From: Longimicrobiales bacterium
GTDB taxonomy: Bacteria; Gemmatimonadota; Gemmatimonadetes; Longimicrobiales; Gaopeijiaceae
Length of the DNA: 64,000 nt
Direction: 5' to 3'
NCBI GenBank assembly: GCA_965203485.1
Contig: OZ241892.1
Coordinates: 640,001-704,000, forward strand
Below, piece after piece: positions 34,130 through 40,100 of the stretch; within the stretch, counting starts at the first letter, position 1, and every line of letters begins with the position of its first letter. A program made the position numbers.

Positions 34130-37100
34130 TTCGGCGGTTCGAATCCGCCCGGCGCCTCTTGTTGTCGCCCCTGTGGCGCGAACTCGGTGTGGACGGCCCC
34201 CAAGGCGGGGGACGCGCCCCAAGTCTTCGCTTGCTTCCCGGATTGCGTACTTGTCGCGCTTGCCTGGTGTTGCCGACCCGTGCAGTCGTGGACGCCGGAC
34301 GTCCGTCGGCCTAGGCGCCGCCGCGCTTGGCCGGCCGCCGTGGCTTCGGCGGTCGCCTTGGAATCGCCTTCGGCTTGGCGCGCGCAGGCGCCGGCTTCGT
34401 TGCGGTCTTCGGCTTGGCGCGCCCACCCCTCGCCGCGGGCCTCGGTTTCGGCGGAGCGCTTCTGGTCGCGGGTCTAGCCTTCGGCGGAGCGCTTTTGGTG
34501 GACCGGGCCTTGGGCCGCGCGTTCCTGGTGGCCGGCTTGGCCGCGGGAGGCGCGCTTCTCGACGCAGGCCGAGCGCTCGGCGGCCGAGGACGAGCTGCGC
34601 GGCGCGTCCTTGCGGCGCCGGCCTCGTCGGCACGACCGGCCGCGCGGACTGCCGAGCCGCGCTGGCCGGGACGGGGAGCGATGCGGCCGGTGGCGCCCGG
34701 ATTGCGCGGCTTCGCCTTCCGGATCGCATCGGAGGCGCCGGTGCGGCTCGTCGTCGGCGCAGGCCGGGCGCGCTCGCCGTAGCGGACCCTGGGCGCAACG
34801 CGAGACGTAGGCCGTTGCGGGCCGTTGTCGGTCACGTAGACGCGGGGATCCTCTTTGTAGCGCGGGCCGAAGAGCGGCGAGCGTCGAACCGGCCGGTCCC
34901 ACCGGCGGCGGTCCCACTCCGGCCGGTCCGGGCCGCGGTATCCCCGGCCCGCGACCACCGTGCCGCCGCGCCGGAGGCCGTGGAAGCTGAAGCCGGGCTC
35001 AGTCCAGTACCCGGCGCCGTACCAGAAGTCCGCGCGCGGCTGAACGAGAAAAGCGGGATGCACGAAATGGGCGAACGGATCAAGGCGCCACCAGGGCCAT
35101 GCCAGCGCGAAGGCCGGCGGCCAAGTCCACGCCAGTCGTCCGAAGTAGCCCCGGGGGCCGTAGCGCCCGGACCCCAAGCGGTAGTCGAAGCAGTCCGGGT
35201 GGACGCCCCAATGGTCCGAGTGGTTCCAGCTCCAGGGAGCCTGGCCGCAACCTTGGTGCGCATGCCCGTAGGCGCCGCAATACTCGTGCCCGTAGTGCGA
35301 GTGCGCGTGGTCCCAGCCGCAGCGCCCAAGGTCGTACGCCCAGAGCTCTGTGCCGAAGGAGATGCTGAACGCCCCATGGCCAACGCCGAAGAAGGTGGAG
35401 CCGTGGGCCGCCGTCGCGACGAAGGGGTTCCAGACGGACCCGTGGCTGGTCCCGATTCCCCAGGAGACGTGGTTTGCCGCTTGGGCCGAGGCGGAAAGCG
35501 GCAACGCGAGCGTCGCCACCGCCCCCAAGAACAGACTAATGGACCGCTTCATCATGGGCTCCTTGTTGACGAGAGAAATCTCTTGCCCCGTCAGGCATGC
35601 ATGAACCGTGCCAGCGGAAGCGCCCCTACGCAAGTCCTTGCCCGGCAACGACTTCGGCGCCTGGGTCGTTCGCGCCGCGAACGGCGAAGCGTCCCTTGCG
35701 CGGGACAGGTGGCGCACCGTTGGGACACCCCGCATTGCCGTCTGGCGGCGGGACCCCGTTCTGCGCCGTGGCCGTCCACGTCCGCGTGGGCGAGGCGCCG
35801 GCCGCGCGGGGTCGCACCGGCCGGGGCCCGTCGTCGGCCGCCCCTCGCCCGACGTTCGCATCCTCGGGACTTGCCAAGCGGCTCCGGAATGCGAATCTTC
35901 AAGGTGCCGCTGGCGGGCCGGGCGCCGACACGGCCATCGTCGCGGCGCGTCGCCCGATTCGGCAGGCCCGGGGGCCAAGTCTCTCTCGAGGCTCGGCCCC
36001 ATGGGGCGCATGCGATCGCAGCGACTCCTTCGTCGCCCGAAGAGCTTTGAATGACTTGGCGCGCGCCGTGCAGGCGCCCGCGGCGCTCCGCGGGCGGGCG
36101 AAACGGAGGCGGCGGCACAAGGATTCGCCGGAACGCACACCGCGGGAGAGAGCGCGACGTTCCGCGTGGCGGAGGGCGGACACGACTGCGGCGCATGTTG
36201 CACGTTCGGGCATGCCCGCGGATCCGCAGCTCTCAACTTGAGGAAGCCCCGAGCTTCCGGAAAGCGCAAGAAGATCGTGAGTGATCGAGACTCGACCGAA
36301 GCGCCCGGGACGCAGGCCGTCCAGGCGCAGGCCGACGGACCGGCTTCCGGCCCCGGCCCCATGGACACCTCGGCGACCGGGACGGCGGGCGGCTCGGCGC
36401 GGGCCGACGGACCGGCTTCCGGCTCCGAAGCCGACGCGGCGGGCCCGGCTTCCGAACCGGGCGACTCTCCGGGAAGGGATGCGCGGAGCCGGCGCGACGG
36501 AGAGCGTTCCCAGCCCCGCCGCGGCCGGCGCCACCACCGCCGCAGGCCGCGGCGCCACGACGGCGACTACGACTTCGGCAGGGACAGCGCGCCGCGCGAG
36601 CCGGGGCAGCTGCTCGGCATCTTGGAAGTCCTTCCCACGGGCTCGGGCTTCATCCGCCGGGAGGATGGCGGATACGTCGCCGGCAAGAACGACGTCTATG
36701 TGGGGCCTCGCCTGATCCAGCGGTTCGGCTTGAGGACGGGCGACGAACTTTCGGGCATCGTCGGCCGCCGCCCGCGCAACAGCAAGAGTCCTCCGTTGCG
36801 CTATCTGGAGCAGGTCAACGGCGCCCCCCCGGACCAAGCCGTCCGAAGGCCGGACTTCAACCGCTTGGCGGCGGTTCATCCTCGCGAGCAGCTGCGGTTG
36901 GAGTGCGGGCGGACGTTCGCGGGCGAGCCCGACATGACGAACCGCGTCGTCGACCTTTTCTGCCCGCTGGGGAAGGGACAGCGCGCGTTGATCGTGGCGC
37001 CGGCGAAGGCGGGCAAGACCACCGTGCTCCAGTCGGTGGCCGAGGGCGTGGTGGCGAATCACCCCGAGTGCGAGCTGGTGATCCTGTTGGTCGACGAGCG

Positions 37101-40100
37101 CCCGGAGGAAGTCACGGAGATGGAGACGTGCGGCTTCGGCGACGTGGTGGCCTCGACGTTCGACCTGACGCCCGAGCGCCACTGCCAGGTGGCCGAGATG
37201 ACGCTGGAAAGGGCGCGCCGCCGGGTCGAGGCGGGCAAGGACGTGGTCGTCATTCTCGATTCGATCACGCGGCTGGCCCGGGCGCACAACACGCTGGCGG
37301 GCGGAAGCGGGCGGACGCTTTCGGGAGGGTTGGACGCGAACTCGCTCGAGAAGCCGAAGCGGTTCCTGGGGAGCGCGCGGCTGATCAAGCCCGAACAGGG
37401 CGGGGGATCGCTCACGATCATCGGCACGGCGCTGGTCGACACGGGGTCGCGCATGGACCAGGTGATCTTCGAGGAGTTCAAGGGCACCGGAAACAGCGAG
37501 CTGGTGCTGAGCCGCGAACTCGCGGACCGCCGCATCTTCCCCGCGATCGATCTCAAGACGTCGGCCACGCGCAAGGAGGAGCTGCTGCTGTCCGCCGACG
37601 CGCTCACGGTGTCGCGCGCGATGAGGCGGCAACTGTCGGACCTGCCGCCCGCCGACGCGATGGAGAAGCTCCTGCGCGTCATGCGCCAGAACGAGACTAA
37701 CGGGGAGCTGATCGCTCTCGCGATGGACCGGCTGTAGAGTCCGCCCCGCGCCCTTGCTCGACGATCCGCTTGAGCCGGGCCAAGCTGGCTTCGATCTGCC
37801 CGCCTTGGGACTCTTCCAGCGTCAGGGCCGTCCAGCCGAGCAGCGGGTTTCGTCCCAAGTCCGCCCGCTCGGTCCAGACGACCGTGGACGTCGCGGCGTT
37901 CGCGCGGATGCCGATCGTCCCTTCGAACCGAATGCGCCCGCCCGCCGCCACCGCCAGGTACTCCACGCCTCGCGGCGGCGTCGAGCCGACCAGCGTGAGG
38001 ACGCCCGACCCCATCCCGCCGTCGTCCCAGACGCGACGGGCGCCGACCCCGGTCGAGCGGCCGTCCACGCGCGACTGGACCTCCCCCCAGGGCGTCCACT
38101 CGACCCAAGCGTCCAAGTCGCCGACCAACGCGAAGACGGCATCTGGCTCCGCCTCGATCTCCACGGAACGGGTCACCTCCGCCGTCCCGGGGAGCAGCAG
38201 GCCCACCAACAGAAAGGCGCCCGCGGCGAGCGCGAACAGCGCAAGAAGACCCGCTGCCAACTTGGCCGGGCGGCGCACGTCAGGCCCGTCCGGCGCAACG
38301 GGCGCTCCGCGCACCACGGCGTCTTGGTCCGGGCGCATCCGCCGGCCCGCTTCGCATCCGGGCGCTTCGCGGGCCGCGTCGTCGTGCCGTCAACACGCCC
38401 CGTCTCCCCGGCAGCGGCTCGCGAGGACCGCCTCCAGCGTCGGCCAGACGTTCTCGGCCAGGACTTCGTGGCCGGCCGCGTTCGGGTGGATGCGGTCGCC
38501 TTGGTTGAGTTCGGGCTCCGCGGCCACGCCTTCCAGCAGAAAAGGCGCAAGCGCGGTCCCGGCGTCTTCGGCTGCGCGCCCGAACGTCGCGCGGAACCGG
38601 TCGGCGTACTGCGCGCCCATGTTGGGCGGGGCCTCCATGCTCGCGATCACCACGTCCGCGCCAGGCGCGTGCCGGCGCGTCTCGGAAGCAATCCAGACGA
38701 GATTCTCGTAGAGGGCTTCCGTGTCGCGGCCCCGCAGTCCGTCGTTCGCTCCCAGTTCCACCACCATCAGCGCAAGGGACTTGCCGTATGACGCCAGCAG
38801 CCCGCCCAGCCGGGTGCGCCCCCCGGCGGAGGTGTCGCCGCTCACGCCGGCGTTCACCACGCGGTAGCGGTATCCGAGCGTCTCGAGCCGGCGCCCGACC
38901 AGCGCCGGATACGCCAAGTCGGGCGACGCGAGGCCGTATCCCGCCGTCAGGCTGGTTCCCAGGAACACGATGCTGGGCGCGTCCGCCGGCCCCGCGCCCC
39001 GCGCAAGCGCTCTCGGGCCGGGCGCCGGTCCGTTCTCGGCGGTCGGCGGCTCCGCCCGTGCTCCCTGCGCGCCCCCGGCGGGTTGCCCGTCTCGGCCGTT
39101 CTCCGCGCGTCCGCAGGCGGCCGCCGCCAGCGAGAGCGCCCATGCCGTCCTCATGAGCGGCCCGCCCGCGATGATCCAGGCCCGGGGCCTGCACCGAACC
39201 TTCACCAGCGGCGGCCGCCCTCTGCACGTCCTGAACGGCGTCGACCTGGACGTCGGCGCCGGCGCGTTCGTCGCGATCGCGGGTCCGTCGGGAAGCGGCA
39301 AGACGACGCTGCTGGGCCTCCTCGCGGGGCTCGACCGTCCCACGGCCGGCCGGGTGATTGTCGGCGGTAGCGATCTCGGGGCCATGACGGAAGATGAGCG
39401 TGCCCTGTTTCGGGTCAACCATGTGGGGTTCGTGTTCCAGACGTTTCACCTGCTGCCTACGTTGACGGCGCTCGAGAACGTCGTGGTGCCCGTCGAGCTC
39501 GCAGGCAGGAGCCGGGGATCGGCCCCGCCGGTGCGCGAGGCGGCCATGGGGTTGCTCGAGCGCGTGGGCCTCGCGGACCGGGCCGGCCACTATCCCGTGC
39601 AGATGTCGGGGGGCGAGCGGCAGCGGGTTGCATTGGCGCGCGCGTTCGCCAACCAGCCGCGCGTGCTCTTCGCCGACGAGCCGACGGGGAACCTGGATGC
39701 CGCCACGGGCGCCCGCGTGGTCGCGATCATGGAGGAGCTGAACTGCGACGCGGGAACCACGCTCGTGCTCGTGACGCACGACGCGGAGCTGGCGGGCCGC
39801 GCCGACCGCGTCGTCCGGCTTGTGGGCGGACGCGTGGCCGAAGCAGGCCGGCCGTGACTCCGTTCGCGCTGCGGATGGCCCCGCGCGAGTGGCGCTTCAC
39901 CTTCCGCCGCCTGGGCGTCTACATGACGTCGATCAGCGTCGGCGTCGCGGCGTTGGTGGCCCTCCACTCGTTCCGGGCCGACGTGGTGCGCTCGATCGAG
40001 GAGGACAACAGGAGTCTCTTGGGAGCGGACGCGCGCCTCTCCGCGGGGCGCGAACTCCCCGACTCGGTGACGGCCCTGCTCGACTCGCTGGCGGGCTTGG

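Follow-up and report, generated by a model that had tools for sequence, protein, structure and literature searches.

In bacteria, factor-dependent termination is mainly the work of Rho, whose choice of RNA in organisms other than E. coli is an open topic. The 64,000-nucleotide stretch of a Longimicrobiales genome analyzed here (the window) encodes a Rho protein, rho-B (g00546), in a genome that also carries a canonical Rho (copy A). What is this second protein, how might it engage RNA, and how would it share its task with copy A?

Gene Structure of rho-B

Searching the genome with NCBIfam model NF006886, we found exactly two Rho matches over the cut-off, rho-B and copy A, as the initial annotation had reported. 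Copy A (G000:C1:200456-201694, minus strand; 417 aa, 598 bits over the full model) carries all three Rho domains and also the sole Rho_N match detected at E ≤ 1 in a six-frame search of the genome. The two genes lie ∼476 kb apart, and their products share 54% sequence identity over 367 aa (given earlier as 54% over 372 aa). The 523-aa reading frame at 36166..37737 (plus strand) is present, open, and intact, and shares 64–91% identity with its listed relatives. It scores 480.9 bits against NF006886 (cut-off 315), as stated before, over model positions 52–411, and 485.9 bits against TIGR00767, below the cut-off of 509.45, where again only positions 52/53–411 are covered. rho-B is a genuine second rho gene. 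The genome contains only one NusG gene, and so nothing indicates that a partner was duplicated along with rho.

Comparison of related loci indicated that the called start probably lies too far upstream. A GTG at position 36277, codon 38 of the called frame, is kept in 7 of 7 loci of family f1 and is preceded, 9–12 nt 5', by a Shine-Dalgarno-like AAGGTG or GGAAAG. In the window this element is GGAAAG (36259..36264, plus strand, identified from sequence), 12 nt 5' of the GTG; its counterparts in the relatives read AAGGTG or GAAAGC. One relative (L041) has an in-frame TAA 5 codons 5' of the conserved GTG. From these three observations we infer that translation probably starts at GTG 36277, yielding a protein of 486 aa (36277..37737, plus strand, stop codon included) with an N-terminal arm of 113 aa. 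Of 92 homologues whose arms span 40 aa or more, 28 are annotated as beginning with M-[ST]-[DEN] at this motif. The relatives show no protein-level conservation 5' of the GTG, and their upstream frames differ from locus to locus. The 37 codons added by the gene caller (36166..36276, plus strand) are probably 5' untranslated leader. The arm had been described as ∼150 residues long; from the probable start it has 113.

On the open reading frame map, an upstream region of ∼715 nt (35562..36276, plus strand) separates rho-B from a divergent secreted-protein gene and would hold the promoter and leader. It contains no Rfam match at E ≤ 0.1 and no sigma-70-like site that we could find, and the 150 nt aligned 5' of the start show little DNA conservation apart from the Shine-Dalgarno element. 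The genes neighboring rho-B are common to 6 of 6 family-f1 loci.

A Disordered Arm in Place of the Helix Bundle

The helix bundle is gone from rho-B, as proposed earlier. Pfam Rho_N is not detected down to E 0.1, and Pfam and six-frame searches located no three-helix bundle (PF07498) in the arm or 5' of it in any frame. A local, iterated helix-bundle HMM matches 0 of 131 rows of the B family versus 30 of 30 A rows. Among the other loci compared, Microbacterium L094 and L103 and several further named loci also bear the label "no helix bundle"; the 1500-nt flank may have produced it artificially, and we base no conclusion on it.

The 113-aa arm (36277..36615, plus strand) is of low complexity and is predicted to be disordered from its composition, charge profile, and pLDDT; in the AlphaFold2 model it has pLDDT values of 41–52 and forms neither helices nor strands. 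Counted from GTG 36277, it consists of 16% Arg, 15% Gly, 14% Ala, 12% Asp, 11% Ser, and 11% Pro, with hydrophobic residues amounting to 6%, a net charge of 0, and four RxR motifs. Its first ∼80 residues form an acidic stretch rich in Ala, Gly, Pro, Ser, and Asp, which is followed by a basic block and then by a short acidic/aromatic linker, DGDYDFGRD. The acidic head contains two exact 21-nt direct repeats, each coding for ADGPASG (36331–36351 and 36403–36423, spanning 36331..36423, plus strand); two such matches were observed, compared with none in 100 shuffles.

The basic block, RDARSRRDGERSQPRRGRRHHRRRPRRH (36475..36558, plus strand), forms the conserved core of the arm. Defined as at least 6 Arg/Lys in 12 residues, it occurs in 88 of the 91 B homologues whose arms reach 40 aa or more, in all 10 fetched B loci, and in each of 11 Gemmatimonadaceae-type B proteins, and is absent from the N termini of A copies (0 of 39). 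Its start lies a median of 37–39 residues ahead of the OB fold in B homologues. By sequence comparison, the Arg-rich block is the single conserved element of the disordered B arm.

The Catalytic Core and the Primary RNA Site

The Rho OB-fold RNA-binding domain (36616..36834, plus strand) corresponds to PF07497 (Rho_RNA_bind; residues 151–223 of the 523-aa frame, E 2.7e-19), and its strands are predicted with high pLDDT. The RecA-type ATPase domain (36943..37563, plus strand) corresponds to PF00006 (ATP-synt_ab; residues 260–466 of that frame, E 6.4e-25). Alignments with E. coli Rho and copy A locate all ATPase motifs in rho-B: Walker A (AKAGKT), DERPEEV, LDSITRLARA, the Q-loop, TGSRMD, and SATRKEE. 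Lys-181, Lys-184, Thr-185, Asp-210, Glu-211, Arg-212, Asp-265, Ser-266, Arg-269, Arg-353, and Arg-366 of E. coli Rho are identical in rho-B, and Lys-283 and Lys-326 are replaced by Arg, position 326 being Arg in copy A as well. We assume the E. coli numbering and the usual roles of these residues (Walker A/B, catalytic Glu, Arg valve and finger, Q- and R-loops); conservation in the alignment extends to the trans-acting Arg finger. Among 40 B-type proteins, 150 of the 486 residues are invariant. The core is modeled with high pLDDT, Foldseek returned 8q3n_A as the best match (E 2.8e-41), and TM scores with solved Rho chains are 0.81–0.94, normalized to the target. Judged from its aligned motifs, the ATPase and translocation core of rho-B is intact.

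By alignment, the OB fold differs from canonical Rho at several primary RNA-site positions. GSGF stands in place of GFGF, and N-S-K-S-P-P-L-R-Y in place of ERY. Relative to E. coli Rho, the B family has the specific replacements F62 to S, R102 to G, E108 to G/S/R, and R109-Y110 to K-S, a mapping by sequence alignment that is ambiguous around the β4-β5 loop. We take E. coli positions 62, 102, and 108–110 to be primary RNA-site, rut-recognition positions, as in the crystallographic literature. The alignment thus suggests that the primary RNA site is altered in B; the substitutions could signify weak or absent rut recognition instead of changed recognition.

Distribution and Phylogeny of the Two Copies

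Larger samples reproduced the pattern noted at the outset, with two Rho matches in the class and one elsewhere in the phylum. In class Gemmatimonadetes, 110 of 121 genomes of one sample and 168 of 183 of another gave two matches, versus a single match in 16 of 18 genomes from other classes of the phylum; related genomes, in these counts as in the pairs below, are non-independent observations. The Rho type lacking the helix bundle is retained across GTDB class Gemmatimonadetes and is absent in the other classes sampled. A few genomes show one type only. G025 and G185, each 96% complete, show B alone, with no second Rho match and no Rho_N at E ≤ 1, and their B genes are intact and have Arg arms; G075, G099, and G149 show A alone. 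These single-type genomes are 96–99% complete but unclosed, and the assembly could have missed the other copy.

In the sublineage of the window (family f1, genera g1, g3, and g4), B copies share 85.9% identity with one another, compared with 75.2% among A copies, and B is the higher in 21 of 21 genome pairs. Family f7 shows the reverse: in all 6 pairs the better conserved copy is A, and B is therefore the more constrained copy only locally.

The FastTree and IQ-TREE PMSF trees group all Gemmatimonadota B copies into a single clade, which branches on a long stem outside the Gemmatimonadota A clade. In the IQ-TREE PMSF tree, the B clade is well supported with short tips, and window-type and Gemmatimonadaceae-type B copies form separate subclades. 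Keeping A and B together lowers the likelihood by 12.1 lnL (AU test on 48 rows, p-AU 0.065), a value that neither favors nor rejects a duplication of B within the phylum, transfer being likewise possible on these alignments. The B-family matches entering the trees were thinned at 88% identity (FastTree) or hand-picked (IQ-TREE PMSF and AU test). L020, L092, L093, L129, and L133 were left out since they passed the motif filter in no frame, L063, L068, L069, L071, and L125 because their core is incomplete, and L056 and L060 as redundant. The nearest genomic relatives of P0124, one of the sister representatives (P0123, P0124, and P0127), are Gemmatimonadaceae/Gemmatimonadota metagenome-assembled genomes (64–71% identity).

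Relationship to Known Rho Types

Rho proteins without the N-terminal domain have been catalogued before. Moreira et al. (2024, NAR, PMC11347177) credit a division into Group A (complete) and Group B (lacking the N-terminal domain) to an earlier survey, their reference 23, and define subtype 2d by the missing domain and an additional region of >25 aa ahead of the OB fold. Their Table S2 lists Type 1 together with 2d in all three Gemmatimonadota genomes of the set (Gemmatimonas aurantiaca, G. phototrophica, and Gemmatirosa kalamazoonensis), with sizes of 417–425 aa for Type 1 and 566–688 aa for 2d; the RefSeq 2d-type protein of G. aurantiaca has 614 aa. Co-resident Rho types in this lineage are thus already on record there, and the suggestion that they add a further, new layer to the control of transcription termination is not supported as new. 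As these proteins are described by Moreira et al., rho-B resembles them in lacking the N-terminal domain, in having an RxR-bearing region of >25 aa, in keeping the ATPase residues, and in co-occurring with a complete Rho, here copy A. Subtype 2d arms are annotated at 197–321 aa in that source, compared with 113 aa in rho-B. rho-B is an orthologue of Group B/subtype 2d Rho and of an already known kind.

Type 4 Rho, which Moreira et al. cite as essential in Fusobacterium nucleatum (PMC11347177), likewise lacks the helix bundle and is presumed functional, but according to their scheme has no arm of >25 aa, whereas rho-B has a conserved Arg block. Rho from Mycobacterium tuberculosis and Micrococcus luteus (Type 2b/2c) shares with rho-B an Arg-rich disordered region adjoining the OB fold in a high-G+C organism. 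Do et al. (2026, PMC13650167) report that M. tuberculosis Rho needs its disordered insertion domain for the engagement of structured Rut sites. Type 2b/2c proteins, found in Actinomycetota and Bacteroidota, keep the helix bundle and carry the insertion between bundle and OB fold; the absence of the bundle in the Pfam, six-frame, and local HMM searches rules out membership of rho-B in this type. The M. tuberculosis and M. luteus proteins are moreover the only Rho of the cell, whereas rho-B co-exists with a canonical one. Another family that begins at the OB fold is the named Rho paralogue NCBIfam NF041509 ("paralog_Rho2, Rho short form"). rho-B scores 435.8–437 bits against its cut-off of 628 and copy A scores 436.3 bits, and because the two score alike we rejected membership of rho-B in this family and see no specific relationship. 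The literature searched contained no bench study of a second, bundle-less Rho.

Discussion

We estimate at roughly 60% the probability that rho-B acts as a hexameric RNA translocase and termination factor of the Rho type, catalytically competent but with a rebuilt RNA-loading module, and that it is partly redundant with copy A rather than a narrow specialist. The Arg block would capture nascent RNA beside the OB cleft by electrostatic attraction and irrespective of sequence. Such capture may, by analogy with M. tuberculosis Rho, allow the ring to load on G+C-rich, structured, C-poor transcripts; the genome region around rho-B has ∼70% G+C. rho-B would work in parallel with copy A on overlapping but non-identical transcript sets, either copy could carry the essential job alone, and in the sublineage of the window B would be the more constrained of the two.

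The initial annotation saw in B a specialised factor that chooses its own RNA or partners. A narrow regulon for B, with general housekeeping termination left to A, appears unlikely to us. In its favor, the primary-site differences and the other N-terminal module make a different RNA choice probable, A is the better conserved copy in family f7, and A suffices in the remaining classes of the phylum. Against it stand two 96%-complete genomes that show B alone and the faster sequence change of A in all 21 pairs of the window's sublineage, and we see no second NusG or other duplicated partner. B might instead be active only in mixed hexamers with A, which would supply the helix bundle in trans while B supplies the basic arm. 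The cores are 54% identical with ring and ATPase motifs all in common, both copies occur together in most genomes of the class, and Moreira et al. (PMC11347177) propose hetero-hexamers for two-copy species. The existence of B-only and A-only genomes, and of two genes ∼476 kb apart that are not co-transcribed, renders an obligate mixture improbable.

We regard it as distinctly improbable that B is a former terminator, now an RNA helicase or chaperone, or a condensate-forming regulator acting through its block-polyampholyte arm. The acidic head, basic block, and paucity of hydrophobic residues (6%) would suit such a role, canonical rut-recognition positions appear changed in the alignment, and additional Rho regions are often predicted to phase-separate (Moreira et al., PMC11347177). 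All Rho catalytic and translocation motifs are, however, kept under strong constraint. Two genomes, moreover, yielded no Rho other than B, and Rho usually matters to the cells that have it. To a decaying duplicate or annotation artefact, for which only the mis-called start speaks, we give next to no credence: the frame is open with 64–91% identity to the listed relatives, B is kept in ∼90% of the sampled genomes of the class, its rows form one well supported clade with short tips, and this conservation refutes decay.

Beyond the partly redundant termination factor that we favor, we tentatively raise a further step, which we hold to be possible though doubtful: in the sublineage of the window, the bundle-less, disordered-arm Rho may already have become the main termination factor, with the canonical copy relaxing, a replacement under way in part of the class. 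This is based on the 75% identity of A versus 86% of B in the same genomes, on the long branch of A, and on the apparent loss of the canonical copy in at least one member of the sublineage (G025) and independently in G185. If true, it would be a natural experiment in which a disordered Arg block takes over the job of a folded helix bundle.

Bundle-less second Rho copies are already catalogued, this phylum included, and our finding adds little as a discovery; its value, as a pointer to the Gemmatimonadetes as a tractable system, is modest. The class presents a clean case: the Rho pair is near-universal within it and missing from the sister classes, some members are in culture, and rare genomes show a single type. 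It thereby makes testable whether an Arg block can substitute for the helix bundle, whether the two Rho proteins split the transcriptome, and whether they co-assemble.

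Results

The second rho gene, rho-B, was called at 36166-37737 (+) in the window and encodes 523 aa in that frame. In its product, B, Pfam searches place the RNA-binding OB fold of Rho at residues 151-223 (E 2.7e-19) and a RecA-type ATPase at residues 260-466 (E 6.4e-25), and find no Rho_N. B scores 480.9 bits against NCBIfam NF006886 (model positions 52-411) and 485.9 bits against TIGR00767, which is under the cut-off of that model (509.45). Searching the single-contig genome (3.56 Mb) in six frames returned two rho genes, rho-B and the canonical copy A (417 aa, contig positions 200456-201694 (-)), which contains the sole Rho_N match of the genome (E <= 1) and shares 54% identity with B over 367 aa. 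With Pfam, NCBIfam, the six-frame search and pairwise identity we reproduced the scores and counts that the initial annotation had given for both copies.

We compared stop-to-stop orthologue frames from the window and from six other genomes of its family, f1 (7 loci). Each frame from the six other genomes has a V-[ST]-[DE]-Q/L/R motif at the position corresponding to codon 38 of rho-B as called. This codon is GTG in 7/7 loci and is preceded, at a distance of 9-12 nt, by an SD-like sequence (AAGGTG or GGAAAG). One locus (L041) has an in-frame TAA five codons 5' of the conserved GTG, which makes an earlier translation start impossible there, and an annotated start M-[ST]-[DEN] is found in 28/92 database homologues having arms (the disordered region N-terminal of the OB fold) of at least 40 aa. 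Taken together, these observations place the start of rho-B at GTG 36277. The gene initially described is real; judged from sequence, its product probably comprises 486 aa with an arm of 113 aa.

Counted from GTG 36277, the arm contains Arg (16%), Gly (15%), Ala (14%), Asp (12%), Ser (11%) and Pro (11%); hydrophobic residues make up 6%, and the net charge is 0. It runs from ∼80 acidic residues through a basic block (RDARSRRDGERSQPRRGRRHHRRRPRRH) and DGDYDFGRD into the OB fold. An AlphaFold2 model from a 40-sequence alignment assigns residues 1-110 pLDDT values of 41-52 and no secondary structure; the core is modeled confidently and resembles solved Rho chains (best 8q3n_A, E 2.8e-41). Among relatives the arm differs in sequence and length, and the Arg block is almost always kept: it is present in 88/91 B homologues whose arm is 40 aa or longer, 10/10 fetched B loci and 11/11 Gemmatimonadaceae-type B proteins, starting a median of 37-39 residues N-terminal of the OB fold, and in 0/39 A-copy N termini. 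A local iterated helix-bundle HMM matches 30/30 A rows but 0/131 B rows; of 150 unnamed Rho representatives, it matches 114.

The acidic head contains one 21-nt sequence twice, as an exact direct repeat (36331-36351 and 36403-36423 (+)) that encodes ADGPASG each time and looks like slippage-type growth of a low-complexity region. The B arms of family f7 (L042-L045) are Gly/Arg-rich and RGG-like (e.g. GGRGGKGRNRRRRSRGRRN) rather than Ala/Asp/Pro-rich; their conserved start motif (L/M-T-N) and gene neighborhood differ as well.

rho-B is a single gene flanked on both sides by opposite-strand genes. Its divergent 5' neighbor (34311-35561 (-)) encodes a secreted protein without a Pfam family. On the 3' side come, in this order, genes for an SRPBCC (Polyketide_cyc2) protein, a GDSL lipase and an ABC/FtsX pair. 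The lipase (-) is divergent from the ABC ATPase and MacB/FtsX-type permease (+) (38390-42388 for the three genes), an order that we take to resemble the enterobacterial tesA-ybbA-ybbP arrangement. The secreted-protein and SRPBCC genes accompany rho-B in 6/6 f1 loci, and the genes for the lipase and the ABC pair do so in 4/6; none of these neighbors occurs in the four f7 B loci. The product of 34311-35561 (-) begins like a signal peptide (MMKRSISLFLGAVATLALPLSASAQ) and ends in ∼130 Lys/Arg/Pro/Ala-rich residues with repeated PAxKP-like units, and its identity across the six syntenic f1 loci is 27-39%. Some 2 kb upstream of rho-B lie tandem genes for tRNA-Gly(GCC) (33956-34029 (+)) and tRNA-Cys(GCA) (34086-34158 (+)); in ten relatives, no tRNA was found within the 7-kb B locus. 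No Rfam element was found at the rho-B locus, and no second NusG in the genome.

We assigned E. coli Rho residue numbers and presumed roles to the aligned B positions. B shares with E. coli Rho the lysines and threonine of Walker A, D210-E211-R212, D265-S266-R269, R353 and R366, and has Arg for K283 and K326; at position 326, copy A has Arg too. In a 114-row alignment we defined B-specific columns as those at least 80% conserved in A and in other phyla and fixed otherwise in B. Examples are G in place of R102, G in place of E108 (R in Gemmatimonadaceae-type B) and A in place of P180. The B consensus further reads S for F62 (GSGF) and K-S for R109-Y110, and window-type B retains F64, R66, D78 and Y80. 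The substitutions at 62, 102 and 108-110 suggest that B may have lost the YC preference. According to a 2025 RNA review (PMC12360218), a Y80C mutant of Rho is defective in Rut recognition. In the model of B, strand β5 lies at PLRYLEQV, preceded by a longer basic loop, GRRPRNSKSP. The substitutions are mapped to E. coli Rho by sequence alignment, and their placement near this loop is uncertain.

At E <= 1e-30, 110 of 121 genomes of the GTDB class have two Rho matches, seven have one and four have three (G014, G030, G034 and G082), where matches do not equal copy numbers and the genomes, being related, are not independent. A second draw of 201 phylum genomes included 183 of the class, with two matches in 168, one in 12 and three in 3 (G167, G196 and G235). 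Unpublished genomes are counted here (G018, G022 and G029 in the first draw; G029, G143, G217 and G234 in the second); excluding these leaves two-match tallies of 107/118 and 164/179. Among the 18 genomes from other classes of the phylum, 16 have one match and two have two low-scoring matches, and the helix bundle is present in 14/14 translatable out-of-class Rho genes (15 fetched). A relaxed search (E <= 0.001) identified three A-only genomes (G075, G099 and G149) and two B-only genomes, G025 (f1, 40 contigs) and G185 (f8, 5 contigs), both 96% complete. The B genes of the latter two are intact and have Arg arms, and Rho_N is absent from both genomes at E <= 1.

Across seven genomes of the window's sublineage (f1; genera g1, g3 and g4), mean core identity is 85.9% for B-to-B and 75.2% for A-to-A comparisons, B exceeding A in 21/21 pairs. 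The order is reversed in four genomes of family f7 (A 95.2%, B 87.4%; B above A in 0/6 pairs), and between the two families the copies behave alike (67.7 and 66.8%). Copy A of the window's genome (also L001 1486-2739 (-)) and of its near relatives (f1: g1, g3, g4 and g9) evolves unusually fast. It matches the full NF006886 model with 598 bits, compared with about 680-705 in most of the class. It reaches at most 73% identity with any further A sequence of the tree, where it has a long stem; every motif is still intact.

IQ-TREE (PMSF), run on 114 core sequences, unites the phylum's A copies in one clade (SH-aLRT 99) with Ignavibacteriota/Bacteroidota as sister; in this A clade, copies from the window's sublineage have a stem of 0.33 and tips of 0.15-0.79. 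All 31 B rows form another clade (support 99, stem length 0.63), which takes in a divergent subclade that has Gemmatimonadaceae MAGs as its closest genomic relatives. The B clade falls outside the A clade rather than nesting in it. Constraining A and B together in a 48-row alignment costs 12.1 lnL, with a p-AU of 0.065, so that an old in-phylum duplication with fast change is compatible with the data, as is an old transfer. NF041509, a "Rho short form" paralogue family that we considered as the identity of B, scores A and B alike and is thus unrelated to the A/B split.

Discussion

The initial annotation had presented B as a specialised second termination factor that the class has fixed, and two co-resident Rho types as what would be a new layer of termination control. 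We agree that B is a second type of Rho and that it is fixed in the class, but the type has already been catalogued. Moreira et al. 2024 (PMC11347177) report more than one Rho in 116 of 2730 genomes, chiefly in Actinomycetota (62) and in the PVC group (30). The distinction between Group A (complete, Type 1 Rho) and Group B (without N-terminal domain) is credited there to an earlier survey; subtype 2d, with an extra region before the OB fold, and Type 4 are defined, and hetero-hexamers are suggested as an idea. Their tables assign Type 1 plus 2d to 3/3 Gemmatimonadota genomes, though "Gemmatimon" is absent from the main text; the 2d regions measure 247, 321 and 197 aa and contain RxR and APA motifs. 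In the literature searched, no experimental work on a Group B Rho was found.

To this catalogue we add the monophyly of Gemmatimonadota B, an Arg block of conserved position, putative B-specific changes in the aligned RNA site, the occurrence of genomes with B only or with A only, and a locally reversed order of constraint between A and B. Together, these points argue that B, whose function we infer throughout, would be a competent, partly redundant Rho and not a narrow accessory.
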